From Candidatus Poribacteria bacterium (GTDB lineage: Bacteria > Poribacteria > WGA-4E > PCPOR2b), in contig OZ242351.1 of assembly GCA_965208675.1 (NCBI GenBank), positions 2,292,834 through 2,356,833 of the forward strand: a DNA stretch of 64,000 bases, given 5' to 3'. Position 1 is the stretch's first letter. Every line of letters begins with the position of its first letter. Positions 8,243-64,000 of the stretch are shown one piece after another. Both the position numbers and the translations under genes were made by a program. The notes below the pieces were generated by a model. That model saw only the letters and a list, made by a program, of their open reading frames with translations. It ran no database searches and was not told the DNA's origin.

Positions 8243-8447
8243 CAACGGAACTTGTACGAAAAGTGGGCGGCAAAGCTACATTTTCGTTTGTGCGTCGAAA
8301 TCATGGTAATTTTAAGGGTTTCACCCTTTCGATAAAGCTATACATGGATGGAACAATTATGAGGCTATACCGTCCACTTCTCCTTTAACCGCACTACGCT
8401 ACTTGCAAAAACCTGTGGAGCATCCTTGAAATTCGGATAAACGGATA

Positions 8448-9269
8448 ATGGACGAGAAGATATTCAAGTATTACGAGAAGGGCGAAGAGGCAGCCCGCCT
8501 CAGTGGCGGATTCGACCGTGTGGAGTTTGAAAGAACGAAGGAAATCCTACTCAGATACCTGCCGCCGCCGCCCGCAAAAATTCTCGATGTTGGAGGCGGC
8601 GCCGGCGCCTATTCCTTCTGGCTAGCGGAAAAGTCCTACACAGTTCATCTGATTGACATTGTACCCCTCCATGTTGAGCAGACGAAAACGGCAGACGGTG
8701 CGGCGCTTCTTGCCAGCATTGGCAAAGGAGACGCCAGAAAACTCGATTTCGAATCTGACTCTATGGATGTCGTGCTTCTACTCGGGCCGCTCTACCATCT
8801 TCCACGGCGTTCGAATCGAATCCGAGCATTGAAAGAAACTCGCCGCGTCTTAAAAACCGGAGGTTTGGTGTTTTGCGCTGCCATTTCACGGTTCGCATCT
8901 CTTCTTGGCGGCTTGGCTCAGGATTTCTTATCCGATCCAGAGTTCCATAATATCGCCTTGAAAGATGTAAAAGATGGCAATCACCTCAATCCGAAAGAGA
9001 TCCCGGGTTACTTTACAACCGCATACTTTCACAGACCAGAAGAATTAGCAGCGGAAATCAAGGAAGCAGGACTTAGCCATTTAAGCACATTGGGCTTAGA
9101 GGGGTCATCATGGCTGTTGGGAGATTTCGAAGAGCGGTGGGCAGACCCCGCGCGAAAAGCGATTATTCTTGAAGTGTTGCGACTGATAGAAGACGAAACA
9201 ACACTTCTCGGTGTCAGTGCACATCTTTTGGCGGTTGCCAAAAAAGAAGGAAGAACCGAAGCTAACTGA
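8448..9269 (+). CDS. Class I SAM-dependent methyltransferase
   Basis: Rossmann motif I ILDVGGGAGAYSFWLAE, a downstream acidic residue (LIDIV), and motif post-I/II spacing. Confidence 0.75.
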   Translation: MDEKIFKYYEKGEEAARLSGGFDRVEFERTKEILLRYLPPPPAKILDVGGGAGAYSFWLAEKSYTVHLIDIVPLHVEQTKTADGAALLASIGKGDARKLDFESDSMDVVLLLGPLYHLPRRSNRIRALKETRRVLKTGGLVFCAAISRFASLLGGLAQDFLSDPEFHNIALKDVKDGNHLNPKEIPGYFTTAYFHRPEELAAEIKEAGLSHLSTLGLEGSSWLLGDFEERWADPARKAIILEVLRLIEDETTLLGVSAHLLAVAKKEGRTEAN

Positions 9270-9305
9270 TTCAGATGGCTTTCAATCGAGATCGAAGGCG
9301 TACCT

Positions 9306-9530
9306 ATGGATAAATGGTATATCAGCGTAACAGTATTGAACGTACTCGCCCTCATTATGCTCATCGGATTCCTAATATACTTTTTTCAACCATCGGCGCT
9401 TGTAAAACGGTTAGGGCTTATCTTTTTCTTAACCGCGGGCACGTTGGTCATGGTTAGAGGTGTCGTAAAAATCACGATGGGCATGCAAAAGGGCGGGAAA
9501 TTACGGATCTCATCGAAAAAGAGAGACTGA
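9306..9530 (+). CDS. Small two-helix membrane protein, hypothetical
   Basis: Two hydrophobic helices and a basic C-terminus. Short ORF, so it could be spurious. Confidence 0.3.
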   Translation: MDKWYISVTVLNVLALIMLIGFLIYFFQPSALVKRLGLIFFLTAGTLVMVRGVVKITMGMQKGGKLRISSKKRD

Positions 9531-9591
9531 CCATCCCGTGTTGTAAACTACATCTCAATGGGGAAATCATAATCATTAACGGAGGGGAATC

Positions 9592-10545
9592 ATGATTGAC
9601 AATCGAACGAGAGTTGCACTTACCCGAGAAGGAAATCGACGCGAAAATGTCTTCACCGCACTCGATTTGGTCCGCGGCGATGTCGTTCCCAAGTTGCGGG
9701 ATCAGGTGATGTTGAAACCGAATTTCCTATCAGGCGACAACCAGTTGGCGTCAACACACGTTGACGCCATCCGCGGCACAATTGATTTTTTGCTGACTAC
9801 CGCAACCCCTCCGCAGGAAATCATTGTGGCGGAAGGCGGCAACGAAGAGGTACCCGGAGAGGCGTTCGAGAATTTCGGTTATTACGCGTTAATTGACGAA
9901 TACCCCATCCCAATTCGGTTAGTGGATCTCAATCAAGAGGAGAATTGGGAGGAGACGCACATCCTACTCGCGGATAGCAGTGAAGTACCCGTGTACATGC
10001 CCAAAACTGTGTTGGATTGCCCGTGCACGATCTCCGTCGGTGTCGCAAAAACGCACGATGTCTGTGTGGTTACACTTGCCCTTAAAAACATGATTATGGG
10101 GACATTACGCAAACAGGACCGCGTCAAGATGCACGGCTTCTGCACCCACGCGGAGCGAAAATTGCCCCGCGAGGCGCAGACACTGAACATCAATCTGATT
10201 CGGTTGTCCCGATATCTTCGTCCCGATATCGCCGTTATTGACGGATACCTAGGGTTACAGGGAAACGGTCCAAGTGGAACCGACGCCGTTGATTTCGGGA
10301 TTGCTGTCGCAAGTGCAGACGTGTTTGCCGCTGACACCGTGATGGCGAAGGCGATGGGCTTTGATCCGCTGCATCTTGGATTGATGCATTACGCCAAAGA
10401 GATGGGATATGGCACGGCTGCTCTTGATAAAATCGATGTGTTGGGGACCCCGGTCGAATCAGTGATCACGCCTTTCAAGCCGCATGAAACGGTGCATCTA
10501 CAATTGCAATGGCATGAACCCGATGCGATGCGTTATTTAGCATGA
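9592..10545 (+). CDS. DUF362 domain-containing protein
   Basis: The N-terminal segment (VALTREGNRRENVFTALDLV ... KPNFLSGDNQ) is characteristic of the DUF362 family. Confidence 0.55.
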   Translation: MIDNRTRVALTREGNRRENVFTALDLVRGDVVPKLRDQVMLKPNFLSGDNQLASTHVDAIRGTIDFLLTTATPPQEIIVAEGGNEEVPGEAFENFGYYALIDEYPIPIRLVDLNQEENWEETHILLADSSEVPVYMPKTVLDCPCTISVGVAKTHDVCVVTLALKNMIMGTLRKQDRVKMHGFCTHAERKLPREAQTLNINLIRLSRYLRPDIAVIDGYLGLQGNGPSGTDAVDFGIAVASADVFAADTVMAKAMGFDPLHLGLMHYAKEMGYGTAALDKIDVLGTPVESVITPFKPHETVHLQLQWHEPDAMRYLA

Positions 10546-10659
10546 GATGTGCGTATACGGCGATCGGCTTGTTTAGGCGGCATACGGACAGCCGAAACGT
10601 ACAGAATCGTTGGCGGCGGACGGATTGCCTCGCACCCATTGCATCAAACTAGAAAAAAC

Positions 10660-50661: not shown

Positions 50662-52101
50662 TTACTCTACAACGTATTCGTGTACGTTAAATTGTACGGT
50701 TTCACGGGGTAACAGCGTGGTATAAAGCCCGATGACTTCTTCCGGTCCCGCTTGGTAATCGAGCCGCAGTCCCTGGGATACGCCCGCCGGCCCATTTAGA
50801 GCGAGAGACTCAACATCATGCAAAACTTCCCACGCCTGTTCTTGGGTGTCGAAATAGCCGCTCACTCTCAGCTCAACTTCTTTTACCGCAGACAGATCTA
50901 CATCAGACCACGGAAAGAGTGCGTTAACGCCAACAAAATCGAACCTCAAGGCAGATTTATCAATACCGTGAACGCGTACCGCCCGCTTTGCAATTGTATC
51001 GGCAGCTAACTGCGCTCTGGCATACGCCCCGGTTCCACCATAATAAGCCCGGCTAACTGCCACAAAGTTCTCACGTACACCGAGCAGCACTTTTACCGTT
51101 GATGGTCGAGGATGCCCTTTCGTCCCGGTTACGCTGACTCGATCGGTGCCAACTTGCTTAATCTCCGTGCTGGTGAAATCGACCACGCCATCGTTATGAA
51201 TGTAGTTGCTTGGGTCGTGGAGTTCGTAAAGGAGTTGCTCTTTGACGGTCCGCTCGGACACTACCCCGCCTGTATTTGGAACCTTCGTGATAATCGCGTC
51301 TCCGTTTGCGTACACCTCAGCGATAGGCATTCCAATGTTGTCCAAACCGGATACATCCTTCATTCCGGGATCTGCATGATATCCGCCCGAGAGCTGCGCG
51401 CCGCACTCCATCAGGTGCCCAATGCCTAGCCCGCTCGCCAGCAAATCCCAGTCATCCATCTGCCAGCCCAATTCAAATATCAACGGCGCAAGAAATTGAG
51501 TGGAATCACCGGCTCTACTAGTAATCACTATATCCGCGCCCCGCCGCAACCCCTCAACAATCAGCGGTGCGCCTTGGTATGCGATAGCGGCTACAAGCCT
51601 ATCCCCGAAAATAGAAACCGGCTCGCCCGTCTCAGATGTTACCGGATCTATTTCGTTGATAAGTGCGGCGCTGCTATCCGGCTGCGTATAGGCGACTTTG
51701 ATACCTTTAATGTTCAATTCCTCGCAGATTTTGGCTGTTAAATTAACTGCACCTTTTACATCTGCGCTCCCACCATTATGGATGATTTTAACACCATTCT
51801 TGATGCATGCCGGAAGTACAGTTAGCAGGGTTCTACCAAGCGTGACATCGTATCCGACATCGCCCTTTGCCTTTCGCAGTGCGGATTCGGAATAGGCTTT
51901 TTCCGATTGAGCGTCAAAAATCAGATAATCAATCCCGCCATTCTCCGCCAGATTCAATGCGGCGTCTATACGGTCGCCGCCGGCGCCGGATCCGCTTCCC
52001 AGCCGAATTGATGATTTTCGTGTATTAATTGTCTTACCCTCCTCAGCAGCGTGAAATTTGAAGACCGAAACTATTCGACAAGTTATCTCTACTCCCACCA
52101 C
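50662..52101 (-). CDS. Acyclic terpene utilisation AtuA-family protein (DUF1446)
   Basis: 479 aa, with the glycine-rich N-terminal region typical of DUF1446 (GSGSGAGGDRIDAAL). Confidence 0.6.
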   Translation of the reverse strand: MVGVEITCRIVSVFKFHAAEEGKTINTRKSSIRLGSGSGAGGDRIDAALNLAENGGIDYLIFDAQSEKAYSESALRKAKGDVGYDVTLGRTLLTVLPACIKNGVKIIHNGGSADVKGAVNLTAKICEELNIKGIKVAYTQPDSSAALINEIDPVTSETGEPVSIFGDRLVAAIAYQGAPLIVEGLRRGADIVITSRAGDSTQFLAPLIFELGWQMDDWDLLASGLGIGHLMECGAQLSGGYHADPGMKDVSGLDNIGMPIAEVYANGDAIITKVPNTGGVVSERTVKEQLLYELHDPSNYIHNDGVVDFTSTEIKQVGTDRVSVTGTKGHPRPSTVKVLLGVRENFVAVSRAYYGGTGAYARAQLAADTIAKRAVRVHGIDKSALRFDFVGVNALFPWSDVDLSAVKEVELRVSGYFDTQEQAWEVLHDVESLALNGPAGVSQGLRLDYQAGPEEVIGLYTTLLPRETVQFNVHEYVVE

Positions 52102-54032
52102 CTAACGGGGTGCCAGCCCATATTATAGGTCATAATTTTGAATGCCGCGTTCATGATGCTCCAAATACCGCCCATAGCGTAATCTCCCAATATCAGACCT
52201 GCAAAGAACGGGATGGCTTTTCGATACGCTCGCAAGCCGCCGTACCGAAGAATTGTGAATTTTAAGCACCAACTAATCAACACCGGCACCCAAATATAAA
52301 TCATCTCTGCCGGACTCACTCCCAATACATAACCAACCGGGTGGAACGGCCACCATAGAAAGCGCATCTTCATGGCTAATAGAAACCCCGTGATTGCCGC
52401 ACCGAGTCCCATAAAACCGATCGTCGTGTAATCCGTTGTTTTTTGAAAGGTCAGCCACCATTGCAGACGTTGTGTAAAGCTTTCCCTGCCCATGCCCCCG
52501 ATTTCCGATTGATTCTCAACGCCGAAGTGGTATGAAAGCCCAAAATAAATCACAAAGGTTGCCGGAATACCGACGGCAAAGGCAAGAATCATCGCCCATG
52601 TCAACCTTCGACGATTGATATTCGCGTTTTCACCGATTCGAAATGCCTCCAGTTGATTCGGCATCGGGTGGCCGGGCTGGTCGCGATTCAATCCGAAAAA
52701 GAAGGATAGAACCGTCAAGTTTCGGGCGCCAAAGGCTCGCGTTCCCAGTGAGGTGACCATTGTGCGTCCCGGATCCAACCAGAGCAGTTCATGCACCGGC
52801 AATCCCAGTCCGCTCCGCATCTTGGTTATCCCTAGGGCGGCACAGCAATACAGCGTTAAAAACAGTAGGATAACCCACAAAGACAGCCCCGCGTTATAAG
52901 CGAAAACGAGCAGAAAAATCACGCCCGCGAGGATGCCCAGCATTGCGGCGCGGTACGACATCGGCTCCGCCGCCTCATCTATTCCTCCCTTTCCGGTGAA
53001 TATCTGCGTAAAAACGCGCTTGAGATGTCTCCGTCCAACCCACAGCGCTAGAAGCCCCAAGCCAATCCACGCTCCCTGAGCCTGCTCGTCGAGATAAAGT
53101 TCGCGCCATCCCATTGTGGCGCCCAGCGACAATTGCGTCATTTTCTTGAAAAAGTAAAAGAACCAGGCCGAAAAGGCGAGATCCAGCGGCATAAAATAGG
53201 AGAGTCCAATGACAAACGGCTGGAAAGAGATGCGCGTCCCGTGCATGTAACTCCACGGCTTTTCCTGAAAATGAAACTGCGTCCACCCGACCGGTATATA
53301 AGGGACGAACGGATAGAAAGCCTTCAAACCGTTAAAAAGGCTAATCCCGGCCGCAATTCCAAATCCGACCCACATTAAACGATTCTTCAGAAATCCAACC
53401 GGATCCCGCCCCATCTCCAGCGGCAACCAGGTAATCGGGTAGGTAAGCCGTTCATGTTCGGAGAACTGCCGCTTGATTATCGCGTTGATACAGATGAGAA
53501 TGAAGCAGAGGACAAACAGAAAGGCAGACCAGTAAAACAGCGGTCCAATCCAAGCCTTGATGTGTTGTAAGGTGAAGAACGTGTCTTCACCAAGAAAAAA
53601 GCCTCGCAGGTCATTCTCGTTTTCTACGGTGAACCAGCCCGGGATATAATGCCAGAAGAGATTACGCCAGTCGTTTTCCGCTGTGGCGTACCAGTAAGGG
53701 TGAGCAATGGGACCGAGTAGTCGAGTCATTCGATGTCCTGATATGGTCGACACCATGACGACCATGACATAGATGACCAACAAGTCGGTGTTTTTGAATG
53801 CGGCTTTACCAACAATCTTTTTGCACAGGAGGTTCAGCAATATCAGCACAAACAGCGTAAACACCGCATTGCTGAACAGCGACATGTACGTGTGATTTAG
53901 GCCTTTAAGGTAGTCATTGGCTGAGATCCAGTAGGAATTGACGACCACCAAAACCACGCCGATTGCCAGTGCACTCAGGGATATTCCACTCGGCGGTTGA
54001 CTTCTGGTTCGCGGCAAATTTTCCAAAAACAA
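52089..54032 (-). CDS. Large polytopic membrane protein of unknown function (DUF6785-like)
   Basis: 647 aa with more than 12 hydrophobic helices. Rich in W/F/Y. No transporter signature recognised. Confidence 0.5.
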   Translation of the reverse strand: MFLENLPRTRSQPPSGISLSALAIGVVLVVVNSYWISANDYLKGLNHTYMSLFSNAVFTLFVLILLNLLCKKIVGKAAFKNTDLLVIYVMVVMVSTISGHRMTRLLGPIAHPYWYATAENDWRNLFWHYIPGWFTVENENDLRGFFLGEDTFFTLQHIKAWIGPLFYWSAFLFVLCFILICINAIIKRQFSEHERLTYPITWLPLEMGRDPVGFLKNRLMWVGFGIAAGISLFNGLKAFYPFVPYIPVGWTQFHFQEKPWSYMHGTRISFQPFVIGLSYFMPLDLAFSAWFFYFFKKMTQLSLGATMGWRELYLDEQAQGAWIGLGLLALWVGRRHLKRVFTQIFTGKGGIDEAAEPMSYRAAMLGILAGVIFLLVFAYNAGLSLWVILLFLTLYCCAALGITKMRSGLGLPVHELLWLDPGRTMVTSLGTRAFGARNLTVLSFFFGLNRDQPGHPMPNQLEAFRIGENANINRRRLTWAMILAFAVGIPATFVIYFGLSYHFGVENQSEIGGMGRESFTQRLQWWLTFQKTTDYTTIGFMGLGAAITGFLLAMKMRFLWWPFHPVGYVLGVSPAEMIYIWVPVLISWCLKFTILRYGGLRAYRKAIPFFAGLILGDYAMGGIWSIMNAAFKIMTYNMGWHPVRWWE

Positions 54033-54325
54033 TTCCTCACTTTAACACATGCGAACTATCGCTAAATCCGTGTATGATTGTTCCACACTCTAGAATACAT
54101 TATAAATCTATCTGATATTGGTTGTCAACACACTCAACGCACAGCGTTTTCAGTTGAAAACTAGAAATTCTTGGGACACTTTTTGCGTTGAGATAAGAAA
54201 CTTACTCCGGTAATATGAGCTTGTGAACACAGTTTTGAAAACTTTAAAGTTCAACCAAACAGTGTCGCAGTTTTTTGCAAGATTAGCGCGTCCAATATCT
54301 ACGCATCTATATCTAGTTTTTTCTG

Positions 54326-54354
54326 TTGACATCTCTGGTGTTTTTGATTAAGAT
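54326..54354 (+). promoter_or_regulatory. Possible sigma70-like promoter for the cox-like operon: TTGACA, 17 bp, TAAGAT
   Basis: Located in a 430-bp AT-rich intergenic region, about 115 nt upstream of the first gene. Confidence 0.3.
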
Positions 54355-54469
54355 AAAGCGAGTGACCAACAAGAACCGTAAAATGTGCAGCCCCGGTCGA
54401 TGATCGGGATACAACTGCGCTCACCAAGTTCCATTTGTGAACCATCTATCTTGAAAGGAGATTGATGCC

Positions 54470-55345
54470 TTGCGAGCGTTTGACTATATACCCGCAAAAA
54501 CTGTTGATGAGGCAGTGGCTTTGCTCGCGGAAAAGGGAGATCAGGCGAAACCGTTGAGCGGTGGTACAGATCTCATTGTTATGGTTAGAGAAGGCAGGCG
54601 GCAGTTGGATTTGATGGTAGATGTCAAAGACATACCCGAAACCAACGTGCTTTCGTTTTCCCAGGATTCCGGCTTACATCTTGGCGCAGCTGTGCCCTGC
54701 TATCAAATCTACGCGGATGATAAAATATCCGCTGCATATCCGGGGCTTGCAGACGCTGCCAAGATAATCGGAGGCACCGCAATTCAAGGCAGAGCGAGCG
54801 TCGGCGGCAATTTGTGCAACGCCTCGCCCGCCGCGGATACGATTCCGCCGTTAATTGTGCTAGAAGCCGTCTGCGTCATTGCGGGGCCAAACGGGACGCG
54901 CGAAGTCCCGGCAGAACAGTTTTGCACAGGACCGGGGCAAACTGTCTTGGAAAACGGAGAATTTCTCGTATCGTTTAAAATTCCAGCACCCAAGAATCAT
55001 TCAAGCTCATATTATCTTCGATTTATCCCGCGCAATGAAATGGACATCGCGGTGGTGGGCGCCGGCGCATCGGTCGTCTTGGACGCCGGGAAAACATCGT
55101 TCGTCTCAGCTCGAATCGGACTCGCTGCGGTCGCCCCAACGCCATTGTTCGCCGAGGAAGCCAGTGCGTCGCTCGCTGGCAGGGAAGTGTCCGACGAAGC
55201 GGTCAATGCAGCAGCTGAAGCGGCGCGCCACATCGCCCGACCAATCAGCGACATGCGCGGAACGATTGAACAGCGGGTTCACCTCGTTGAAGTGCTGACA
55301 CGCCGCGCCTTAAATGGTGCAATTCAAAGAGTGAAGGAGTCGTGA
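54470..55345 (+). CDS. Xanthine-dehydrogenase-family FAD-binding subunit (CoxM/CutM-like)
   Basis: FAD-binding domain of molybdopterin dehydrogenases (KPLSGGTDLIV ... GGNLCNASPAAD). 291 aa. Confidence 0.85.
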   Translation: MRAFDYIPAKTVDEAVALLAEKGDQAKPLSGGTDLIVMVREGRRQLDLMVDVKDIPETNVLSFSQDSGLHLGAAVPCYQIYADDKISAAYPGLADAAKIIGGTAIQGRASVGGNLCNASPAADTIPPLIVLEAVCVIAGPNGTREVPAEQFCTGPGQTVLENGEFLVSFKIPAPKNHSSSYYLRFIPRNEMDIAVVGAGASVVLDAGKTSFVSARIGLAAVAPTPLFAEEASASLAGREVSDEAVNAAAEAARHIARPISDMRGTIEQRVHLVEVLTRRALNGAIQRVKES

Positions 55346-55351
55346 AAATAG

Positions 55352-55840
55352 ATGCCGAAGAAAGTACACGTTCAAACGACAATTAACGGCGAAACTGTTG
55401 AATTTCTGTGTGAGCCTCGCCAGAGCCTGCTTGAAGTCCTTCGAGATGAACTCGGAATGACCGGCGCCAAAGAAGGTTGCAACAATGGAAACTGCGGCGC
55501 ATGCAGCGTAATTCTTGATCGACGGCTGGTCAATTCCTGTATAGTGCTTGGCGTTGAAATTGAAGGGAAAACGGTGGAAACCGTTGAAGGTCTTGCCGAG
55601 CCGGGAAAACTCCATCCGATACAGGAGATTTTCTTGGAAGATGCGGCGCTTCAGTGCGGTATCTGCACACCCGGCTTTATCGTAGCAACAAAGGCACTGC
55701 TGGACAAAAATCCTAACCCAACTGAGTACGAAGTCCGTTACTGGCTGGCAGGCAATCTATGCCGTTGTACCGGCTACGATAAGATTGTCCGCGCCGTGCT
55801 CGATTCGGCTCAAATTATGTCTTCGGAGGTAGGTGCATAA
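55352..55840 (+). CDS. (2Fe-2S)-binding subunit (CoxS/CutS-like)
   Basis: Two [2Fe-2S] motifs: CNNGNCGACSV and CGICTPGF ... CRCTGY. 162 aa. Confidence 0.9.
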   Translation: MPKKVHVQTTINGETVEFLCEPRQSLLEVLRDELGMTGAKEGCNNGNCGACSVILDRRLVNSCIVLGVEIEGKTVETVEGLAEPGKLHPIQEIFLEDAALQCGICTPGFIVATKALLDKNPNPTEYEVRYWLAGNLCRCTGYDKIVRAVLDSAQIMSSEVGA

Positions 55841-58095
55841 TGTCAGAGAAGAAAGAATATAAAGTCATCGGCACCCGTCCTATCCGACATGATGGTGTCG
55901 ATAAAGTGACAGGCCGCGCCCTCTACGGCGCAGATTTCCAAACTACCGGGCTGCTGCACGGAAAGGTTTTGCGCAGTCCCCACGCCCATGCCCGCATTAA
56001 ATCCATTGACACTAGCCGCGCTGAAGCCCATCCCGATGTAAAATCGGTTGTGACTGCGGCGGACCTCCCTACGGCAGCGGACAAAATCGCCGATCTCGGT
56101 GAAGGTGCAGTCAATCTGAAATATCTGTGCGACAATATTCTCGCGAGCGACAAAGCGCTCTACACAGGGCATGCAGTCGCTGCGCTTGCGGCGAACGACC
56201 CTCACACGGCTGAAGAGGCGCTTGGACTAATTGATGTCGAATACGAGGTGTTACCGCCAGTACTTGAAGTGCGGGAAGCGATGGAAGACGATGCGCCGCT
56301 GCTGCATGAAAATCTGAAAACCGACGCGATGGGAGAAAAGTCTGAAAAGTCGAGTAATGTCGCGAGTCATTTCCAACACAAAAAGGGCGACATTGACGCA
56401 GGTTTTGCTGAAGCAGACGTTATTGTCGACCACGATTTTGTCACCGGTACCGTGCATCAAGGCTATATCGAGCCTCACAACGCAACGGCATTGTACAATC
56501 CCGACGGGCAACTCACCATCTGGTGCAGTACGCAAGGTGCATTTGCCGTGCGTCAACAAGTATCGGAAATTCTTCAGGTCCCGGTTTCCAAGGTTAAGGT
56601 GGTGCCGATGGAGATTGGCGGCGGATTCGGCGGGAAGATTAGTGTCTACCTTGAGCCGGTTGCCGCGCTGCTGTCCAAGAAATCGGGCCGTCCTGTCAAG
56701 GTCTTGATGAACCGGGCAGAAGTTTTTGAAGCCACCGGGCCGACCCCTGCATCTTACATTCGTGTAAAGATGGGCGTCACTAATGACGGACGCATCACCG
56801 CGGCAGAGGGTTACCTGGCGTTTGAAGCTGGCGCGTACCCGGGTTCACCCGTTGGCGCGGGAGCCATGTGTATCTTCTCCCCCTACAATATCCCCAATGG
56901 GCTGATTGACGGGTATGATGTGGTCGTCAATAAACCGAAATCTAATGCGTATCGCGCGCCCGGCGCAACTAATGCCGAGTTCGCTGCCGAAACCGTCGTC
57001 GATGAAATCTGCGAGAAGCTTGGCATGGATCCGCTCGAATTCCGCATCCTCAACGGAGCAGAAGAGGGCGTCAGCCGCATTGACGGTCCCGTGTTCCCGC
57101 GTATCGGTTGCATCGAAGCAACTGAAGCCGCAAAGGAACATCCACACTACGAAGCGCCGCTCGAAGGGGAAAATAGAGGGCGAGGTGTGGCGTCCGGGTT
57201 CTGGTTCAATGTCGGATTGAAGTCTAGCGTCGCAATTAACGTAAACCCCGACGGTACCATTAGCCTTGTTGAGGGTTCGACCGATATCGGCGGCACGCGG
57301 GCTTCAATTGCAATGCAAGCCGCGGAGGTGCTGGGAATTCCCGCCGAATCGGTTTATCCCACGGTAGTCGATACGAATTCAGTCGGTTACACAGATGTAA
57401 CCGGCGGCAGCCGAACCGCATTTGCGACGGGATACGCCGCCTATGAAGCTGCTCAGGATGTTAAGCAGCAGATGACCGAACGCGCGGCAAAATTGTGGGA
57501 GGTCGATGCCACGGAAGTGCAGTTCGCGGACGGCGATTTTATATGCGTGAACGGCAAAGATGAGCGCATGAGTTTCACGGAGTTGGCTGCGAGGCTTGAT
57601 GAAGTCGGCGGTCCGGTCACCGGGCGTGCTTCCGTTGATCCGACTGGGGTTGGCGGCGCTTTCGCCACGCACATCGTTGATGTTGAGGTCGATCCGGATA
57701 CCGGAAAGGTCGAAATCCTGCGCTACACAGCAACCCAAGACGCCGGAAAAGCCGTCCATCCCAGTTACGTCGAAGGGCAGATGCAAGGCGGCGTCACGCA
57801 AGGGATTGGCTGGGCGTTGAATGAGGAATATATATATGACAAAGACGGTCGAATGTCCAACGCGAGTTTCCTCGATTACCGCATGCCAACCTGCCTAGAT
57901 TTGCCGATGATTGACACGGTCATCGTTGAAGTTCCCAATCCGGGCCACCCGTACGGTGTACGAGGCGTAGGAGAGGTTCCAATCGTTCCGCCCCCCGCTG
58001 CGATCGCCAACGCTATCTATCGCGCTATAGGCGTTCGGATGAACGAGCTCCCAATGTCTCCCGGTCGGATACTCAAAACGATGGGGAAACTCTAA
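55840..58095 (+). CDS. Xanthine-dehydrogenase-family molybdopterin-binding large subunit (CoxL-like; the active-site loop is not canonical for CO dehydrogenase)
   Basis: 751 aa aldehyde-oxidase / XDH a-b hammerhead plus Mo-pterin domains. The loop SNAYRAPGATN differs from form I AYRCSFR and form II AYRGAGR. Confidence 0.85.
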   Translation: MSEKKEYKVIGTRPIRHDGVDKVTGRALYGADFQTTGLLHGKVLRSPHAHARIKSIDTSRAEAHPDVKSVVTAADLPTAADKIADLGEGAVNLKYLCDNILASDKALYTGHAVAALAANDPHTAEEALGLIDVEYEVLPPVLEVREAMEDDAPLLHENLKTDAMGEKSEKSSNVASHFQHKKGDIDAGFAEADVIVDHDFVTGTVHQGYIEPHNATALYNPDGQLTIWCSTQGAFAVRQQVSEILQVPVSKVKVVPMEIGGGFGGKISVYLEPVAALLSKKSGRPVKVLMNRAEVFEATGPTPASYIRVKMGVTNDGRITAAEGYLAFEAGAYPGSPVGAGAMCIFSPYNIPNGLIDGYDVVVNKPKSNAYRAPGATNAEFAAETVVDEICEKLGMDPLEFRILNGAEEGVSRIDGPVFPRIGCIEATEAAKEHPHYEAPLEGENRGRGVASGFWFNVGLKSSVAINVNPDGTISLVEGSTDIGGTRASIAMQAAEVLGIPAESVYPTVVDTNSVGYTDVTGGSRTAFATGYAAYEAAQDVKQQMTERAAKLWEVDATEVQFADGDFICVNGKDERMSFTELAARLDEVGGPVTGRASVDPTGVGGAFATHIVDVEVDPDTGKVEILRYTATQDAGKAVHPSYVEGQMQGGVTQGIGWALNEEYIYDKDGRMSNASFLDYRMPTCLDLPMIDTVIVEVPNPGHPYGVRGVGEVPIVPPPAAIANAIYRAIGVRMNELPMSPGRILKTMGKL

Positions 58096-58201
58096 ATTTT
58101 GGGATAGCCGAAAAAATCAGTGCCTGCCTCTGATTTGAGGCAATGGGGCAGGCACACTCCCAACATCATTCTCTTAGGACTTACGCAATAAGTTCAATAG
58201 T

Positions 58202-58229
58202 CCCCCTGATAAGGGGGATTTAGGGGGTT
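58202..58229. repeat. Second copy of the CCCCCTGATAAGGGGG hairpin plus TAGGGGGTT element, between the coxL-like and MoaD-like genes
   Basis: Nearly identical core to 26200-26241. Confidence 0.6.
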
Positions 58230-58340
58230 AGAAACATGGAAATAACGAGTTTTAAGTCCAATTTTTCCTTTTTCTGCTCAATTTGCGTAAGTCCTGTCTC
58301 GGTATTTCCAATCCTCCCCGCATTCATGTAAGGCGGTACC

Positions 58341-58625
58341 ATGCCAATCGTATCAGTCCCCTCCCTCATGCAGAATCTCACCAACGGCGCAGATAAAGTT
58401 ACCGTGGACGGCGAAACACTGCGAGAAGTGATTGAAAATCTTGAAGAATCCTATCCCGGCTTCAAAGCACGCCTCTGCGACGGCAATCGGATACGGAAAA
58501 ACATCTCGCTTTACATTGACGGCACCATCTCACGGGAAGGCATGCGCCAACCCGTAAAAGCCGACACCGAAATTCACTTCCTGCCCGCAATTAGTGGTGG
58601 TTGTAGCCTCATGCCTGCCAAGTAA
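58341..58625 (+). CDS. MoaD/ThiS-family ubiquitin-like sulfur-carrier protein with a 7-residue extension after the Gly-Gly
   Basis: Beta-grasp length (94 aa). ...IHFLPAISGG is followed by CSLMPAK before the stop. Confidence 0.55.
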   Translation: MPIVSVPSLMQNLTNGADKVTVDGETLREVIENLEESYPGFKARLCDGNRIRKNISLYIDGTISREGMRQPVKADTEIHFLPAISGGCSLMPAK

Positions 58626-58826
58626 AGTGAAATTGTTGCTGTCTAGGCGCAGCGCATATGGGATTATGCTTAAGTAGCCATCCATTTTGGTTCAACAGCG
58701 CAATTCCGCCCTAATGGATTGGCAAGGTGTAGCGCATCACAACCCAAATCCCGTCCAAGTAAAGAAACCCTTTAGAGATTTGAACCGCAATTAACAACCG
58801 CTAATCTCCAACCAAACGAGGCATTC

Positions 58827-60950
58827 ATGACACAACCGAACCGCATCGAAACGATTCTTAAAGACAGCAATTATCATCTTTCCTTGTTTAAGGAAAGAGA
58901 GATTAAAGCGTTGCGCGACAATATCTTCATCAAAACTGTTAAGGGTGAAGAGAAGCCATTCGTCAACTGTATTGTACGGGACAAAGCGATTCAACTCAAA
59001 CCGGAAGAAGTCGTCCGCCAACTATATACGACAAAGCTAATCAATGAATACAGCTATCCCAAATCCCGGTTGGCTTTTGAACACCCTGTCAACTTTGGAA
59101 GTCAGAGGAAAAGTGCTGACATTGTCATCTTTGACAAGGACCGCCCTGATTCAGCCAATATCATCGTTGAGTTGAAAAAACCTAAACTCAAAGACGGTAA
59201 AAGCCAGCTACGCTCCTACTGCAATGCCACCGGTGCGCCGATAGGTGTCTGGACAAACGGGCAGCAGATTTCCCATTACAACCGCAGGGATCCGAATCAC
59301 TTTGAAGAAATCACCGATATTCCCAAAGTGGACCAAAGTCTTCAGGACATCCTCGTTGAACACTTCACGCTGAAAGATTTAATCCTCAAGGATAAGATTT
59401 CCAATGAGCAAAAATCCCTGAAGAATATAGTTTTGGAGATGGAGGATGAGGTGCTAGCAAATGCTGGCGTGGACGTGTTTGAGGAGATTTTTAAACTAAT
59501 TTTCACCAAACTTTACGATGAATTTCAAAGCCGGTCGGACAAGGAATTTCTAAACAGATTTGTGCGGCCAGCGACTAACATAGCTATACGAGAAAATCCA
59601 TACGGATATCGACAAGGGGTAGATTATGCTAGGCTTAAGGCTGCTGTCAAAAACGCTCCGGATGTTGGCTTCCGGCCGATGGAATTCCGAAATACAGGGC
59701 AGACAGATACAGAACTCAAACACAAAATACAGAACTTGTTCAATCAGGCAAAAGACGAGTGGCCGGGCGTTTTTTCCGATGATGACACTTTTGAACTTTC
59801 CGACAGCCATCTCGCTATCTGTGTATCCAGTTTGCAGGACATTAAATTGTTCAACTCCAATCTGCTGGTGGTGGACGAAGCCTTCGAATATTTGGTAAAC
59901 AAATCCGCAAAAGGGGAAAAAGGGCAATATTTTACACCTAGGCACGTTATTGATATGTGCGTTCAGATGCTGAAACCCAAGCCCGGCGAATATATGATCG
60001 ATACTGCTGCCGGTAGCTGCGGATTTCCGGTGCATACAATCTTCAAACTAACGGGGCATTTGTTCAGTAACCTCGAAATACCGCCCAAGGAGAAAGAGAA
60101 CATCCTAAAAGTGTTTGGCATCGACTTCGATGAAAAGACAGTCAGGGTTGCCAGAACATTGAACCTGATCGCCGGTGATGGCGAAACCAACGTTCTACAC
60201 CTGAACACACTTGATTTTGTGCACTGGAGTGACCGGACTGAGCGGGATAGAAAATGGATCAACACCTACGGTAGGGGGTTTGAACGGTTGGAACGACTCA
60301 GGGCGGAAAAAGAGGACAATAAGCAGTTCAACTTTGACATTCTGATGGCAAATCCGCCGTTTGCCGGAGACATCAAAGAGAGCCAACTATTGCATCAATA
60401 TCAACTAGGTTTCAAGGCAAACGGTGCGGCACAGAGTAAAGTTGGGCGTGACATCTTGTTTATCGAGCGCAATCTGGACTTTCTCAAACCTGGCGGACGT
60501 ATGGCGATTGTGCTTCCGCAGGGCAGATTCAACAATACATCCGACAAACATATCCGTGATTTTATCGCCGAGCGAGGGCGTATCTTGGCGGTCGTTGGAT
60601 TACATGGCAACACTTTCAAACCCCACACCAGCACGAAGACCAGCGTCCTTTTTGTGCAGAAGTGGGATGATGAACTGTGCCCAAAATTGGACGACTATCC
60701 GATTTTCTTTGCCGTGAGCGAAAAGGCGGGCAAAAACAAATCGGGAGATTATGTCTATGTCAAGAATAGCAATGGGCAGTATGAACTAGACAAAAACGGT
60801 CATCTGATTGTTGAACACGATTTGCATAGCCATGAGGGGCAATTAGAAGATGGCATCGCTGAAGCCTTTATCGAGTGGGCGAAGGAGGAAAAATTGAGTT
60901 TTTGGACGGATGCAGAAGATGGCGCAATGACAGAGCGACGCAAAGCATAG
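58827..60950 (+). CDS. Restriction-modification enzyme: an N-terminal HsdR_N-type PD-(D/E)xK nuclease domain fused to a gamma-class N6-adenine DNA methyltransferase (BcgI-A-like / Type IIG or Type-I-like RM subunit)
   Basis: Nuclease motif ADIVIFDKD ... IIVELKKPK (D...E-x-K). MTase motif I IDTAAGSCGF and motif IV NPPFAG. 707 aa. An S-subunit gene lies downstream. Confidence 0.8.
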   Translation: MTQPNRIETILKDSNYHLSLFKEREIKALRDNIFIKTVKGEEKPFVNCIVRDKAIQLKPEEVVRQLYTTKLINEYSYPKSRLAFEHPVNFGSQRKSADIVIFDKDRPDSANIIVELKKPKLKDGKSQLRSYCNATGAPIGVWTNGQQISHYNRRDPNHFEEITDIPKVDQSLQDILVEHFTLKDLILKDKISNEQKSLKNIVLEMEDEVLANAGVDVFEEIFKLIFTKLYDEFQSRSDKEFLNRFVRPATNIAIRENPYGYRQGVDYARLKAAVKNAPDVGFRPMEFRNTGQTDTELKHKIQNLFNQAKDEWPGVFSDDDTFELSDSHLAICVSSLQDIKLFNSNLLVVDEAFEYLVNKSAKGEKGQYFTPRHVIDMCVQMLKPKPGEYMIDTAAGSCGFPVHTIFKLTGHLFSNLEIPPKEKENILKVFGIDFDEKTVRVARTLNLIAGDGETNVLHLNTLDFVHWSDRTERDRKWINTYGRGFERLERLRAEKEDNKQFNFDILMANPPFAGDIKESQLLHQYQLGFKANGAAQSKVGRDILFIERNLDFLKPGGRMAIVLPQGRFNNTSDKHIRDFIAERGRILAVVGLHGNTFKPHTSTKTSVLFVQKWDDELCPKLDDYPIFFAVSEKAGKNKSGDYVYVKNSNGQYELDKNGHLIVEHDLHSHEGQLEDGIAEAFIEWAKEEKLSFWTDAEDGAMTERRKA

Positions 60951-61136
60951 GAGGCTTTTATTGCTAACAATAGCAAAAGAAAGATATATGTCAACCCCGA
61001 GGTTAGATGTCTCCCGGTTATCGGATGAAATGGACGATATGGAAAAAGAAATACAGTAATAGGCAGACTCCGTATGCCGTAAACCTTATGCAAATTACGG
61101 CACTCCAGCATCACCTAAAACTTGATTGTAATCATC

Positions 61137-61164
61137 GTAGGGAACAACAATCGTTGTTCCCTAC
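61137..61164. repeat. REP-type hairpin GTAGGGAACAAC-AATC-GTTGTTCCCTAC, copy 1
   Basis: Perfect 12-bp stem and a GTAG 5' tetranucleotide typical of RAYT-associated REPs. Upstream of the 423-aa ORF. Confidence 0.7.
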
Positions 61165-61210
61165 ACTGCGTAAGCTCTCAGACTGTGATTGATACAACAT
61201 TTCCGGAAAG

Positions 61211-62482
61211 ATGATTATGATTTTTATGATAGACGAAGATAATTACGACAATATCATTAAACGGCCATATAGACCACAATTTGATGGCAGGTTAGTTTCT
61301 GTAACATATGACGTAGAAAAAGACACATTGTCACATGTCGTTACCCAAAGAAACGGTATGCCCTTAACCGTGGTCCCTTTAATTGAAAAAGATATGTTCT
61401 ATAGTATAGACAAGAGTGGTAACGTCAACCCAATCACACATATATGCACTGATTCATCACATCCGCCTCTCGTTGAAGGCTTCGGGCAGAAGACATTGTA
61501 TCAACAGATTTCAGAGAAAGTTGCAGGGCATGTGACGGATGGAATCAAATTCAATGACATAGTTGATTTAATGTTGGACGAAGCGATTTCTATGCTGAGT
61601 AGCCCATCTAATTGTGTCTCCGAAGATGGAAGATTGCAGAGTATGCGTCGGCAAATTGCCAGAGATTGGGGAGAGGTGTTTTGCAAACTTGACAATTTGG
61701 GACATCTGACTGGGTGGTTTATAAATGAGTGTAAACGCGATAATAATGAGTTGCATTTTGTACTTGGGTTATTTGCTTTCGAGGCGATACGGATTTTATT
61801 TGCGACTGTCAATCAGTTGCGTGCCGGGTTGGCGGATGAGACATTTGTGTATTGGCGTACTCTTTACGAGACCTTTGTAAAAAGTCGATTCATGTTGAAA
61901 TTTAGCAAGGCGGATGCGGATCTGCCTGGACGGTTTCAGTATTATACGAATTCGGCATATTTGAAATTTTACTCAATATTTGCCCCCAAAGACGATCCTC
62001 ATGCGCAAGATAATCCGTGGATACAAATGGAAAGGTGGTATGAAACCCGTTATGAAAAACAGGGCAAAGGTAGTTATGGATGGGTATATCCTCTGATTAT
62101 AAATAAAAAGGGGGGACCGGTCATTAAACCAGCTTTCGGACAAATTATAGACGAGGTAGATAGAGGATCGAGATTTTCAGAAATATATTATGATGTGTCT
62201 ACTGCAAAGAGTCACGGGCAGTTTGTATGGAATCCTCTTATAGTTAGTCCAACAAAAGGAAGGGCGACTCATCTTGATCCATTTAGCATTGGAAATATTG
62301 CTCTGGTAATGGAGCTGATGATGCCTCTGTTTGAGGAGATTTTAGAGAACACCACCGAATCGTGCAGTAAGCCGGAACACGGCGTTGTGATGGGCATCGT
62401 GAGGGCCGCTATTGCAGACATAAATAATTCTATCGCAGAGGTTAAGGCATCTAATCCCGAAATACACGGTGGCATCGCATAA
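61211..62482 (+). CDS. Hypothetical protein of 423 aa, embedded between the RM enzyme gene and hsdS and bracketed by REP hairpins
   Basis: Long ORF on the same strand as the RM genes with AT-rich codon usage like its neighbours. No motif I can recognise. Confidence 0.55.
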   Translation: MIMIFMIDEDNYDNIIKRPYRPQFDGRLVSVTYDVEKDTLSHVVTQRNGMPLTVVPLIEKDMFYSIDKSGNVNPITHICTDSSHPPLVEGFGQKTLYQQISEKVAGHVTDGIKFNDIVDLMLDEAISMLSSPSNCVSEDGRLQSMRRQIARDWGEVFCKLDNLGHLTGWFINECKRDNNELHFVLGLFAFEAIRILFATVNQLRAGLADETFVYWRTLYETFVKSRFMLKFSKADADLPGRFQYYTNSAYLKFYSIFAPKDDPHAQDNPWIQMERWYETRYEKQGKGSYGWVYPLIINKKGGPVIKPAFGQIIDEVDRGSRFSEIYYDVSTAKSHGQFVWNPLIVSPTKGRATHLDPFSIGNIALVMELMMPLFEEILENTTESCSKPEHGVVMGIVRAAIADINNSIAEVKASNPEIHGGIA

Positions 62483-62499
62483 ACCCTTATTGAAATTTC

Positions 62500-62527
62500 G
62501 TAGGAAACTACAATCGTTATTCTCTAC
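62500..62527. repeat. REP-type hairpin, copy 2 (degenerate: GTAGGAAACTAC-AATC-GTTATTCTCTAC)
   Basis: Same architecture as copy 1 with four substitutions. Confidence 0.6.
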
Positions 62528-62579
62528 GAAATGCGCGTAACATGCAATTATTTCCAAAATCATTTCGCAATATAAATAA

Positions 62580-62804
62580 TCGGTTACGCGGAAGGTAAGA
62601 AAACGTTGGGGAAATCACAGATTTGGTTGGCAGAAATCATTTTATGACCACGTAATCAGAAACGATGAGGATATATATCGTGTCCGTGCCTACTTCCAAT
62701 ACAACCAACTGAACTGGAAATTGGATAAAAATAACCGAACCAACTGTAACAAATGGCATGGTGTAGGGAAAAACGATCGTTGTTCCCTACGAAGGACTCG
62801 TTAA
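62580..62804 (+). pseudogene. Decayed IS200/IS605-family Y1 (RAYT-like, REP-associated) transposase; only the C-terminal region remains
   Basis: The frame reads ...FGWQKSFYDHVIRNDEDIYRVRAYFQYNQLNWKLDKNN, matching the conserved Y1-transposase C-terminus (WQRxYYDHxIRNExxLxxIxxYIxxNPxKW). No HuH/Tyr N-terminal part. Upstream there is a frame-shifted fragment QLFPKSFRNINNRLRG. It is flanked by GTAG hairpins. Confidence 0.6.
62763..62790. repeat. REP-type hairpin, copy 3 (GTAGGGAAAAAC-GATC-GTTGTTCCCTAC), overlapping the 3' end of the transposase remnant
   Basis: Perfect 12-bp stem starting with GTAG. Confidence 0.7.
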
Positions 62805-62824
62805 AAATACAAATAGGGTGAATC

Positions 62825-63700
62825 GTGCAGTATTCAATTATGAATCATTCTGACATTGATTTAGGACATAGGATAGATGCCGAATATTTTCAGCCTACCT
62901 ACCTGCACATAGAAGAAAAACTCGTAGAGAATCAGGCAATACCACTGAAGAACTTTTGTTCTATTACCGGCAGCGCCTTTTATCCTGCTGCGATTCACCT
63001 TTATGCAGCTGATGGTTTACCATTTATCCGATGTGTTGACTGTGTCTCATACCCTATTATTACATCAAGACAAAGCACACAATTTGAAAAAATACCGAGA
63101 GAATTTGCCAATGAACATAAAAACATCAAGAGGTTGTCAAAAGGGGAAATAGTCATAACGAAAGTAGGAACCCCATGTTTTGCCTCGATAATTCATGATA
63201 TAGAGGAGATGGCTTTATCGCGCAATGTCTTAGGCCTGAAATCAATCGCTAATATTGATCCTTACTACTTAGTTGCTTTTCTACGTTCAAAATATGGTTT
63301 CTTACAATTGCTCAGGGAAAGAGAACTGACAATCCAGTTTAAATTGACGTTTGACCGAGTAGGAAATGTTCTCATTTTCAAGCCAGCGGATAATAAGTTA
63401 GAAAACCGAATAGCGGATAGCTTAATTTTACACGAAGCGATTAAAAAGGAATCAGAACAATTATACAGTCAAGCCCAAGCCCTCCTCCTCGCCGAACTTG
63501 GGCTTGCTAACTGGCAACCGAAACACCGATTGACATTTGTTAAAGACTACTCCGACACTGAACAAGCCGAGCGTGTTGATGCGGAATACTACCAGCCGAA
63601 ATATGAGGGAATCGTTGAGGCGATAAAAAACTGTATGGGCGGCTGGGATACGCTGGGGAATTTAGTTATGATAAAGAAATGTATAGAAGTAGGAAGCTAA
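62825..63700 (+). CDS. Restriction-modification specificity subunit (HsdS-like), first target-recognition domain plus central conserved region. It ends at an in-frame TAA.
   Basis: DAEYFQPTY ... and ... DAEYYQPKY conserved repeats flank a TRD-like block. GTG start. Confidence 0.7.
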   Translation: MQYSIMNHSDIDLGHRIDAEYFQPTYLHIEEKLVENQAIPLKNFCSITGSAFYPAAIHLYAADGLPFIRCVDCVSYPIITSRQSTQFEKIPREFANEHKNIKRLSKGEIVITKVGTPCFASIIHDIEEMALSRNVLGLKSIANIDPYYLVAFLRSKYGFLQLLRERELTIQFKLTFDRVGNVLIFKPADNKLENRIADSLILHEAIKKESEQLYSQAQALLLAELGLANWQPKHRLTFVKDYSDTEQAERVDAEYYQPKYEGIVEAIKNCMGGWDTLGNLVMIKKCIEVGS

Positions 63701-64000
63701 GAGTATCTTAATGAAGGAGTTCCTTTTGTTCGCGTCAGCAACTTAAACCCATTTGAAATCACTAGTGAAAAGTATATTTCCGATTCGGTGTATTCAAGAG
63801 CTGCGCAACACCAACCTCAACAAAGCGAGATACTTCTCAGCAAGGACGGTACCCCCGGCATTGCCTATTATTTGCGCGAGGTCCCTCCAAAAATGATTCC
63901 GTCAGGAGGAATACTCCGATTGAAAAGCAAGACTGATAGAATTGACAATGAGTATTTGACACTGGTACTAAATTCAATATTGACTAAAGAGCAATCAAAC
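63701..64000 (+). other. In-frame continuation of hsdS encoding a second TRD (EYLNEGVPFVRVSNL ... ILLSKDGTPGIAYYL ...), truncated by the window end
   Basis: 100 sense codons in the same frame as 62825-63700 immediately after its TAA. The sequence has classic HsdS TRD character. Confidence 0.6.

Follow-up and report, generated by a model that had tools for sequence, protein, structure and literature searches.

A stretch of 64,000 nucleotides from a Candidatus Poribacteria bacterium (GenBank assembly GCA_965208675.1, contig OZ242351.1, positions 2,292,834 to 2,356,833 of the forward strand), called the window here, carries at 61211-62482 (+) an uninterrupted open reading frame (ORF) of 423 codons. 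This ORF, the target gene of the present analysis, lies between a gene for a 707-aa DNA methylase and an hsdS-like specificity gene of a restriction-modification (RM) system, with repetitive extragenic palindromes (REPs) on either side of it. The initial annotation of this DNA had described a 423-aa protein co-oriented with RM genes; the ORF exists and is intact, and both the methylase gene upstream and the hsdS-like ORF downstream are on the (+) strand. That it is a genuine gene is evident from ~93 homologous clusters and from seven intact orthologues in Poribacteria, for which the ratio of nonsynonymous to synonymous substitution rates (dN/dS) is 0.25-0.54. A database protein identical to the target protein (P0001) has a length of 421 aa. 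Because the orthologues, which show 'IIM IFMIDE' in the start region, have Ile-Ile as the two codons preceding 'MIFMIDE', translation probably begins with the ATG at 61217, located 6 nt past GGAAAG, from which a protein of 421 aa would be made. An exact-sequence genomic-context look-up with P0001 and a tblastn search of the target protein against plasmids gave no match, no Rfam family was matched within 60800-63000, and a search for promoters and terminators at the locus returned nothing convincing. Other loci and proteins are cited below by L and P numbers.

The Pfam scan of the target protein (E <= 1) yielded DUF5677 (PF18928) as the sole match, with 22 bits and E = 1.9e-4 over residues 184-254 (61760-61972), a score below the gathering threshold of 27.1 bits. 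Among its relatives, P0084 (36.8 bits) and P0074 (27.9 bits) pass this threshold, P0062 (26.0 bits) lies below it, and a precomputed PF18928 match is present in most homologues. Homology searches delimited a closed clade of ~93 clusters at 90% identity, which corresponds to 28 representative clusters (E < 1e-30) in a search of 1.84 billion proteins; where the organism is named, the members stem from metagenome-assembled genomes of Candidatus Poribacteria, Latescibacterota, Opitutales and Caldilineaceae. Past a score gap, the clade profile reaches further proteins at E = 1e-7 to 1e-4, and all seven of those that were checked are bona fide DUF5677 proteins (73-112 bits), which also match phrog_27456 (function unknown). 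In a joint alignment of 52 sequences E220, W291 and H335 are invariant, and R216, Y289, G290, Y327 and W153 are at least 90% conserved. The motifs common to the clade and to bona fide DUF5677 are RTL[HY]E (R216, E220), YGW (Y289-W291) and Y..S..H (Y327, H335), so that profile-level homology and shared motifs occur together. By these comparisons, the target protein is a divergent branch of Pfam DUF5677 (PF18928; phrog_27456).

The initial annotation had found no motif that could be placed; the sub-threshold match and the profile homology now place the protein. Its further statement that Walker, HEPN, PD-ExK, helix-turn-helix and transmembrane signatures are absent agrees with the Pfam result, with the NCBIfam scan, in which no curated model was matched, and with PADLOC-DB v2.0.0 (5027 models), which gave no significant match for the target protein. 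For three clade members and six bona fide DUF5677 proteins, PADLOC returned no significant match either, and at E <= 0.1 just two weak ones, to PDC-M08B (E = 0.024) and MkoB (E = 0.049).

The protein consists of a lineage-specific N-terminal region (residues ~1-75; 61217-61435, +) and a conserved all-alpha core (residues ~77-423; 61436-62479, +), which contains the DUF5677 match. An AlphaFold2 model based on an alignment of 78 sequences (mean pLDDT, the predicted local distance difference test score, 77; predicted template modelling score 0.73) has residues 90-423 as a confident all-alpha bundle, whereas residues 1-84 are poorly defined and beta-rich, the N-terminal region having a pLDDT below 50. 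Residues invariant at the level of the clade include C79, D81, S83, H84, P85, C385 and H390; the Cys-x4-His pairs C79/H84 and C385/H390 could constitute a metal (Zn) site, the first pair being located in the low-confidence part of the model. Residues 1-75 are specific to the Poribacteria subfamily and evolve fast, and they are missing from some Poribacteria copies (P0022-P0029, L059); most other members begin at the motif 'CTDPSHPP'. One subfamily has another N-terminus, of the pattern ..ENGxYLAT..PGLVAQGRT.SEA, which resembles HicB-type antitoxin domains; Pfam did not confirm this (best match DUF1902 at E = 0.11).

No relative was found among solved structures, and the folds that were considered by name did not hold. 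Regarding a HEPN RNase, the only Rx4H-like string of bona fide DUF5677, 'RWRTLH', reads 'YWRTLY' in the target protein, the His of this motif is often Tyr in bona fide DUF5677 as well, and hhalign against a HepT protein gave a probability of 0.06%. For a relationship to the bAvd / 23S_rRNA_IVP four-helix bundle the hhalign probability was only 0.95%. Because both of these tests failed, the activity cannot be read from sequence or fold. An anticodon nuclease of the PrrC/RloC type was likewise discarded, there being neither a P-loop/ATPase match in Pfam nor a match in PADLOC.

The first gene of the host operon (58827-60950, +) encodes the 707-aa protein, in which a nuclease-like domain is fused to an N6-adenine methylase (Pfam HSDR_N_2, 4e-27; N6_Mtase, 1.6e-33; Eco57I, 7e-11) and which is 84% identical to the product of a 740-aa gene of L023. 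The string ADIVIF...VELKKP (D...ELK) in its N-terminal HSDR_N_2 domain is consistent with a PD-(D/E)XK motif. The second gene, hsdS-like, extends from 62825 to 64000 (+) and continues beyond the end of the window. Its ORF 62825-63700 has no Pfam match of its own, and shows 79% identity over 267 aa to a 475-aa Methylase_S protein of L023; it ends at an in-frame TAA (63698-63700), past which the frame keeps a sequence resembling a target recognition domain ('EYLNEGVPFVRVSNL...') up to the window end. The gene is probably a pseudogene, or the base call at the TAA is wrong, and for this reason the RM system of the source genome may be inactive. No hsdR was seen in the window from 52000 to 64000, where the window ends within hsdS and an hsdR may follow downstream, in the full cassette of L023, or beside the closest annotated relatives of the 707-aa methylase, which are found on a Klebsiella plasmid and on Picosynechococcus pAQ6 (L060, L061). 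Since hsdR was seen neither in L023 nor next to these relatives, the operon looks BcgI-like / type IIG-like rather than like a classical type I system. The GC content of the whole cassette is 38-47%, compared with 52-57% in flanking genes of the xanthine-dehydrogenase type, by which the RM cassette is a horizontally acquired, low-GC one. A GC of 41-45%, set against the 52-57% of the flanking genes, and the presence of the cassette at two different chromosomal sites speak for this origin.

A palindrome of 28 nt with the consensus GTAGGGAACAACGATCGTTGTTCCCTAC occurs three times around the target gene: REP1 at 61137-61164, 46 nt upstream of the ORF; REP2 at 62500-62527, a degenerate copy (86%) ~17 nt past the stop codon; and REP3 at 62763-62790 (+), recognized by repeat and folding analysis 35 nt before hsdS. 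Zero copies are expected in shuffled sequences, and there is no fourth copy within the window. The predicted folding energies of the three hairpins are -20.3, -11.1 and -14.3 kcal/mol, respectively, with z = -7.1 for REP1, which bears out the REP hairpins reported on both sides of the gene: it is the same 28-nt palindrome throughout, with three predicted stems. In the window, L008, L015 and L021, a REP stands 18-21 nt beyond the stop codon of the gene. Unrelated contexts on 19 metagenome contigs also contain this 28-mer, and no contig of this set carries the target gene, hsdM or hsdS. It is a dispersed, true REP: a short palindrome, scattered over unrelated loci and associated with a Y1 transposase. 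The notion that the palindromes are the private ends of a gene-specific cassette was rejected for the 28-mer, given its presence on those contigs without the gene. A REP variant, GTAGGGAACGCAGATCTGCGTTCCCTAC, lies at 11295-11322 of L007; its matched arms change from CAAC/GTTG to GCAG/CTGC, with the hairpin kept.

At the window locus the REPs form part of a 57-nt direct repeat. The upstream copy (61108-61164, +) comprises a 29-nt leader (GCATCACCTAAAAC...) and REP1, and the downstream copy (62472-62527, +) comprises the leader and REP2, with the leader supplying the last three codons of the target gene and its TAA stop. Leader and REP flank the gene on both sides in L008 and L015 and recur upstream of it in L010; the leader is missing from the dispersed REP copies elsewhere. 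The upstream copy resembles the relic 3' end of another copy.

Translation of the 232 nt that separate REP2 from REP3 gives '...RWGNHRFGWQKSFYDHVIRNDEDIYRVRAYFQYNQLNWKLDKNN', upstream of which there is one internal stop; this product corresponds to the C-terminal half of an ORF at 5043-5525 of L023 that bears a faint Y1_Tnp match. On this evidence the segment 62529-62760 (+) is the 3' half of a decayed REP-associated tyrosine transposase (RAYT). The 294-bp block of REP, remnant and REP recurs in L007/L023, where it lies upstream of hsdM, and in L010 and L015, where 400 bp separate it from the gene on the downstream side.

In total, 1.87 kb separate the methylase (M) from the specificity (S) gene in the window, and this distance is taken up by REP, gene, REP, RAYT remnant and REP. 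In the Klebsiella plasmid relative (52% identity to the 707-aa methylase) the S gene follows 9 nt after M, and a hypothetical gene comes next; in the Picosynechococcus pAQ6 relative (59% identity) one polypeptide of 1179 aa spans both functions. Because the closest annotated relatives thus have M and S either 9 nt apart or fused, comparison of the loci identifies the 1.87-kb block as an insertion into the RM operon. The spacer between M and the target gene (60989-61100) contains an ORF of 23 codons (MSTPRLDVSRLSDEMDDMEKEIQ) and an 8-bp hairpin (TGCCGTAA..TTACGGCA, ~61073-61100), and is kept at ~84% identity in genomes without hsdM.

The trio of M, DUF5677 gene and S is located, by alignment, at two distinct chromosomal sites. 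The window and L009 share a flank with a MoaD-like gene, and in L007/L023 the trio, which is 81% identical to the window at the nucleotide level across 3.7 kb, stands between a NAD kinase gene and a RecN-like (SMC_N/AAA_23) gene, flanked by the ORF with the faint Y1_Tnp match upstream and by a 209-aa ORF and an AAA_15/21 ATPase gene downstream. At the same NAD-kinase/RecN-like site, six other genomes (L001, L008, L010, L015, L016-18, L059) possess the gene but lack M and S. In alignments these solo loci match window 60852-61165, which covers the final ~100 bp of hsdM together with the intergenic stretch; they are thus deletion derivatives and not independent insertions. The placement of the gene inside an RM operon, as given in the initial annotation, therefore stands for the window, where it lies between the methylase and hsdS-like genes, and does not extend to those genomes in which the RM genes were lost while the gene was kept. 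Transposition of a REP-gene-REP unit on its own was also considered and is unsupported, the solo loci with their hsdM remnant being deletions; the REPs probably account for local rearrangements. The NAD-kinase site is a recurrent landing site for RM genes: at L015 3093-5127 and L001 6190-7170 a C5 DNA methylase gene is found with or without a gene for a HaeII-type restriction enzyme.

All seven Poribacteria orthologues compared are intact. Their pairwise dN/dS is 0.41-0.95 over the 75 codons at the N-terminus, as against 0.19-0.48 for the core. Regarding pairs in which both members are solo copies, dN/dS amounts to 0.31-0.54; as these copies are also intact, the gene is kept under purifying selection even where RM genes do not adjoin it. 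The first 75 codons have a lower dS (0.11-0.37) than the core (0.28-0.59) and a higher dN/dS; recombination or a nucleotide-level constraint near the start is a possible cause.

The initial annotation's expectation of a defence-island gene was borne out. In 10 of 11 dereplicated contexts, recognised defence or mobile-element genes were present within ~8 kb, the exception being L024/25, with weak defence neighbours only. Outside the Poribacteria lineage, L004 has CBASS-type genes, insertion sequence (IS) elements and an integrase gene; L055/56 has Gp49/XRE and HEPN_Swt1-SNF2 genes, L057 two integrase genes and Mrr, and L046-49 GmrSD and type ISP remnants. In L006 the gene is found 1 kb after hsdR-YgjP, in an island with type I RM, TIR/Thoeris-like and Schlafen (SLFN) genes. 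In L045 it begins 8 nt after the gene of a 1162-aa MmeI/Type-ISP-like methylase and precedes a Type_ISP_C fragment, with VapBC and ApeA-HEPN beside it. In L011 a 53-nt gap separates it from a preceding ORF with an N6_N4_Mtase match, and it is flanked by M78/DUF4411, MNT-HepT, a trypsin-like protease and Gabija-like AAA_15/21 with UvrD. Together with the window, L045 and L011 place the gene directly after a DNA methylase gene in three independent lineages. No partner gene is conserved across the contexts examined.

Two loci deserve separate mention. At 9200-9568 L011 contains a 122-aa ORF resembling a 23S_rRNA_IVP / bAvd-like four-helix bundle (133 bits). It is read in a different frame from the 1082-aa methylase-containing ORF that directly precedes the homologue, and overlaps the 3' portion of that ORF; the gene boundaries at this place are uncertain. 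In L014, from a Caldilineaceae genome, the homologue is split into pieces at 8396-8782 and 10001-10654 by an insertion of ~1.2 kb with transposase-like ORFs, and represents an IS-disrupted pseudogene.

DUF5677 is widespread: its members number in the thousands and come from bacteria and archaea as well as from plasmids and prophages. To our knowledge the family has neither a known function nor a solved structure. According to a profile search for fusions, bona fide DUF5677 proteins are nearly all single-domain. The only domain fusions seen in the superfamily are P0157 and P0193 (bona fide DUF5677, 509-511 aa), which have a partial Peptidase_C15 (pyroglutamyl peptidase) match at the C-terminus. 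On plasmids, DUF5677 genes adjoin recombinase, AbiEii, TIR and TnpB genes; in E. coli, 72 of 5426 genomes have one in a lambdoid prophage, where it fills a variable position flanked by a DUF977 gene and hokD. In Bacillota, DUF5677 has been reported as statistically enriched beside defence-marking serine recombinases (PMC12632615).

We infer from these data that the target gene works autonomously as an accessory immunity module, one that consists of a single protein whose N-terminal domain is variable and that rides defence islands, a reading to which we give about an even chance. Such a module would be of the abortive-infection or sensor-effector type. The variable N-terminal region would supply recognition, and the DUF5677 core would supply an effector or ligand-binding activity via R216, E220, W291 and H335 with the nearby Y289, Y327 and K333. 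The gene, its REPs and the now-decayed RAYT form an insertion at the junction of the nuclease-methylase and specificity genes; the REP hairpins would act as mRNA punctuation that uncouples expression of the target gene from that of the RM genes, and a position next to DNA methylase genes would be tolerated by the module or beneficial for it. The comparisons show the homology, the architecture of the insertion, the setting in defence islands, purifying selection and independence from neighbouring RM genes, whereas immunity and the roles of the two protein regions and of the REPs are inferences.

A number of points weigh against an immunity function. No catalytic motif and no structural relative were found for the target protein, and DUF5677 is not represented in PADLOC v2. 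A dN/dS of ~0.3 is a moderate constraint only, and the N-terminal region may be dispensable, given the Poribacteria copies that lack it. The sample of contexts, about a dozen loci and no formal background model, amounts to guilt by association. In addition, the one DUF5677 ORF for which a test is reported, from Bacillota, was one of nine candidates challenged in E. faecalis with six phages; five of the nine lowered plaquing, and this ORF was not one of them (PMC12632615).

The main rival, which we consider unlikely, follows the PrrC/RloC paradigm, in which the protein would dock in a latent state on the methylase/specificity core and would be set off, as an abortive-infection effector, once the RM enzyme had been disabled by an anti-restriction protein of a phage. 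The prrC gene lies within the EcoprrI hsd locus, and rlo genes lie within Campylobacter type I loci. Such a guard would suit a gene that immediately follows, in the same orientation, N6-methylase genes of three Pfam families in independent lineages (the window with L009 and L007; L045; L011), as well as the L006 copy behind hsdR-YgjP and the M-DUF-S trio, which moved in one piece from one chromosomal site to another. Two observations weaken the guard model: intact solo copies persist under purifying selection although their neighbouring M and S genes were deleted, and many contexts are free of adjacent RM genes (L004, L024/25, L055/56, L057); bona fide DUF5677 genes on plasmids and prophages also stand alone. 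Furthermore, the hsdS gene of the window itself has an in-frame stop, and the target protein has no PrrC-like ATPase or nuclease module. A variant, in which the DUF5677 core is an unrecognised effector or sensor fold that guards methylase-containing restriction enzymes and mounts a back-up response, with the Cys/His site and the swappable N-terminus tuning the sensing, is in our view improbable.

To a similarly low degree we would credit a selfish or maintenance function of a mobile cassette, such as addiction of the toxin-antitoxin kind, an anti-defence factor or a restriction modulator, which would stabilise the island or ease its establishment. The association with REP/RAYT, IS elements, integrases and toxin-antitoxin genes is compatible with such a function, as are the HicB-like pattern in the N-terminus of one subfamily, for which DUF1902 at E = 0.11 is all that Pfam offers, and the survival of the gene when RM genes decay. 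Against this stand the absence of a conserved partner toxin or antitoxin gene and, in Pfam, of a helix-turn-helix or DNA-binding module, and the nature of the solo loci, which as deletion derivatives of an RM cassette give no sign that the gene promotes mobility.

That the gene is functionless at present, a passenger decaying together with the RM cassette around it, is highly improbable. Decay of the cassette is visible in the hsdS nonsense codon and the RAYT remnant, and it reaches the homologues themselves in the IS-split copy of L014 and in some N-terminally truncated copies; nevertheless, the Poribacteria orthologues are without exception intact and constrained, and conservation of the core, in which dozens of residues are invariant, extends over four phyla-level lineages. 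A housekeeping or metabolic protein that adjoins RM genes by chance, for which nothing specific speaks apart from the solo copies between NAD kinase and RecN-like genes, is effectively refuted by the patchy distribution (few clusters among 1.84 billion proteins), the variable locations, the low GC, the lack of a curated NCBIfam match and the hsdM remnant that accompanies the gene at that very site and implies that it arrived with an RM cassette.

The clade constitutes a clean natural experiment, as the same gene occurs embedded in an RM operon, alone after loss of the RM genes, and, in distant phyla, next to different methylases and defence systems. A true immunity gene would represent a single-protein system with a new fold and would help to explain why accessory genes land at the junction of methylase and specificity genes in RM operons; otherwise the gene is another uncharacterised passenger of defence islands.

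Compared with known systems, the family as a domain of unknown function, its leaning towards defence islands (noted once) and accessory genes wedged in RM operons are already known; new are the divergent clade, which has an N-terminal domain and Cys/His pairs not shared by the rest of the family, the REP/RAYT insertion architecture and the contrast between RM-embedded and RM-free copies. Like DUF5677 in general, the clade consists of all-alpha, single-domain proteins of ~350-430 aa encoded by stand-alone accessory genes on plasmids, prophages and islands, whereas the target protein has Tyr at two positions of the 'ARWRTLHE' consensus (Y214, Y219), a 75-aa N-terminal extension, the clade-specific C79/H84 and C385/H390 and a location in an RM operon. 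As in REP/RAYT systems, a perfect palindrome of 28 nt is dispersed, here on 19 contigs, and at the window locus it is clustered beside a Y1-transposase remnant; the difference is that the repeat is lengthened there to a 57-nt direct repeat with a locus-specific leader. The host operon, in a comparison of genes alone, shares with BcgI-like type IIB and type IIG systems a nuclease-methylase polypeptide, a separate S gene and the absence of hsdR in L023, and differs from them in that M and S are split by the 1.87-kb insertion and S has a nonsense codon. Finally, as is generally known of prrC, RloC and rlo, a non-RM gene is wedged in the same orientation between hsd-type genes, whereas the target protein has neither an ABC-type ATPase nor anticodon-nuclease motifs and its gene is kept without RM genes.

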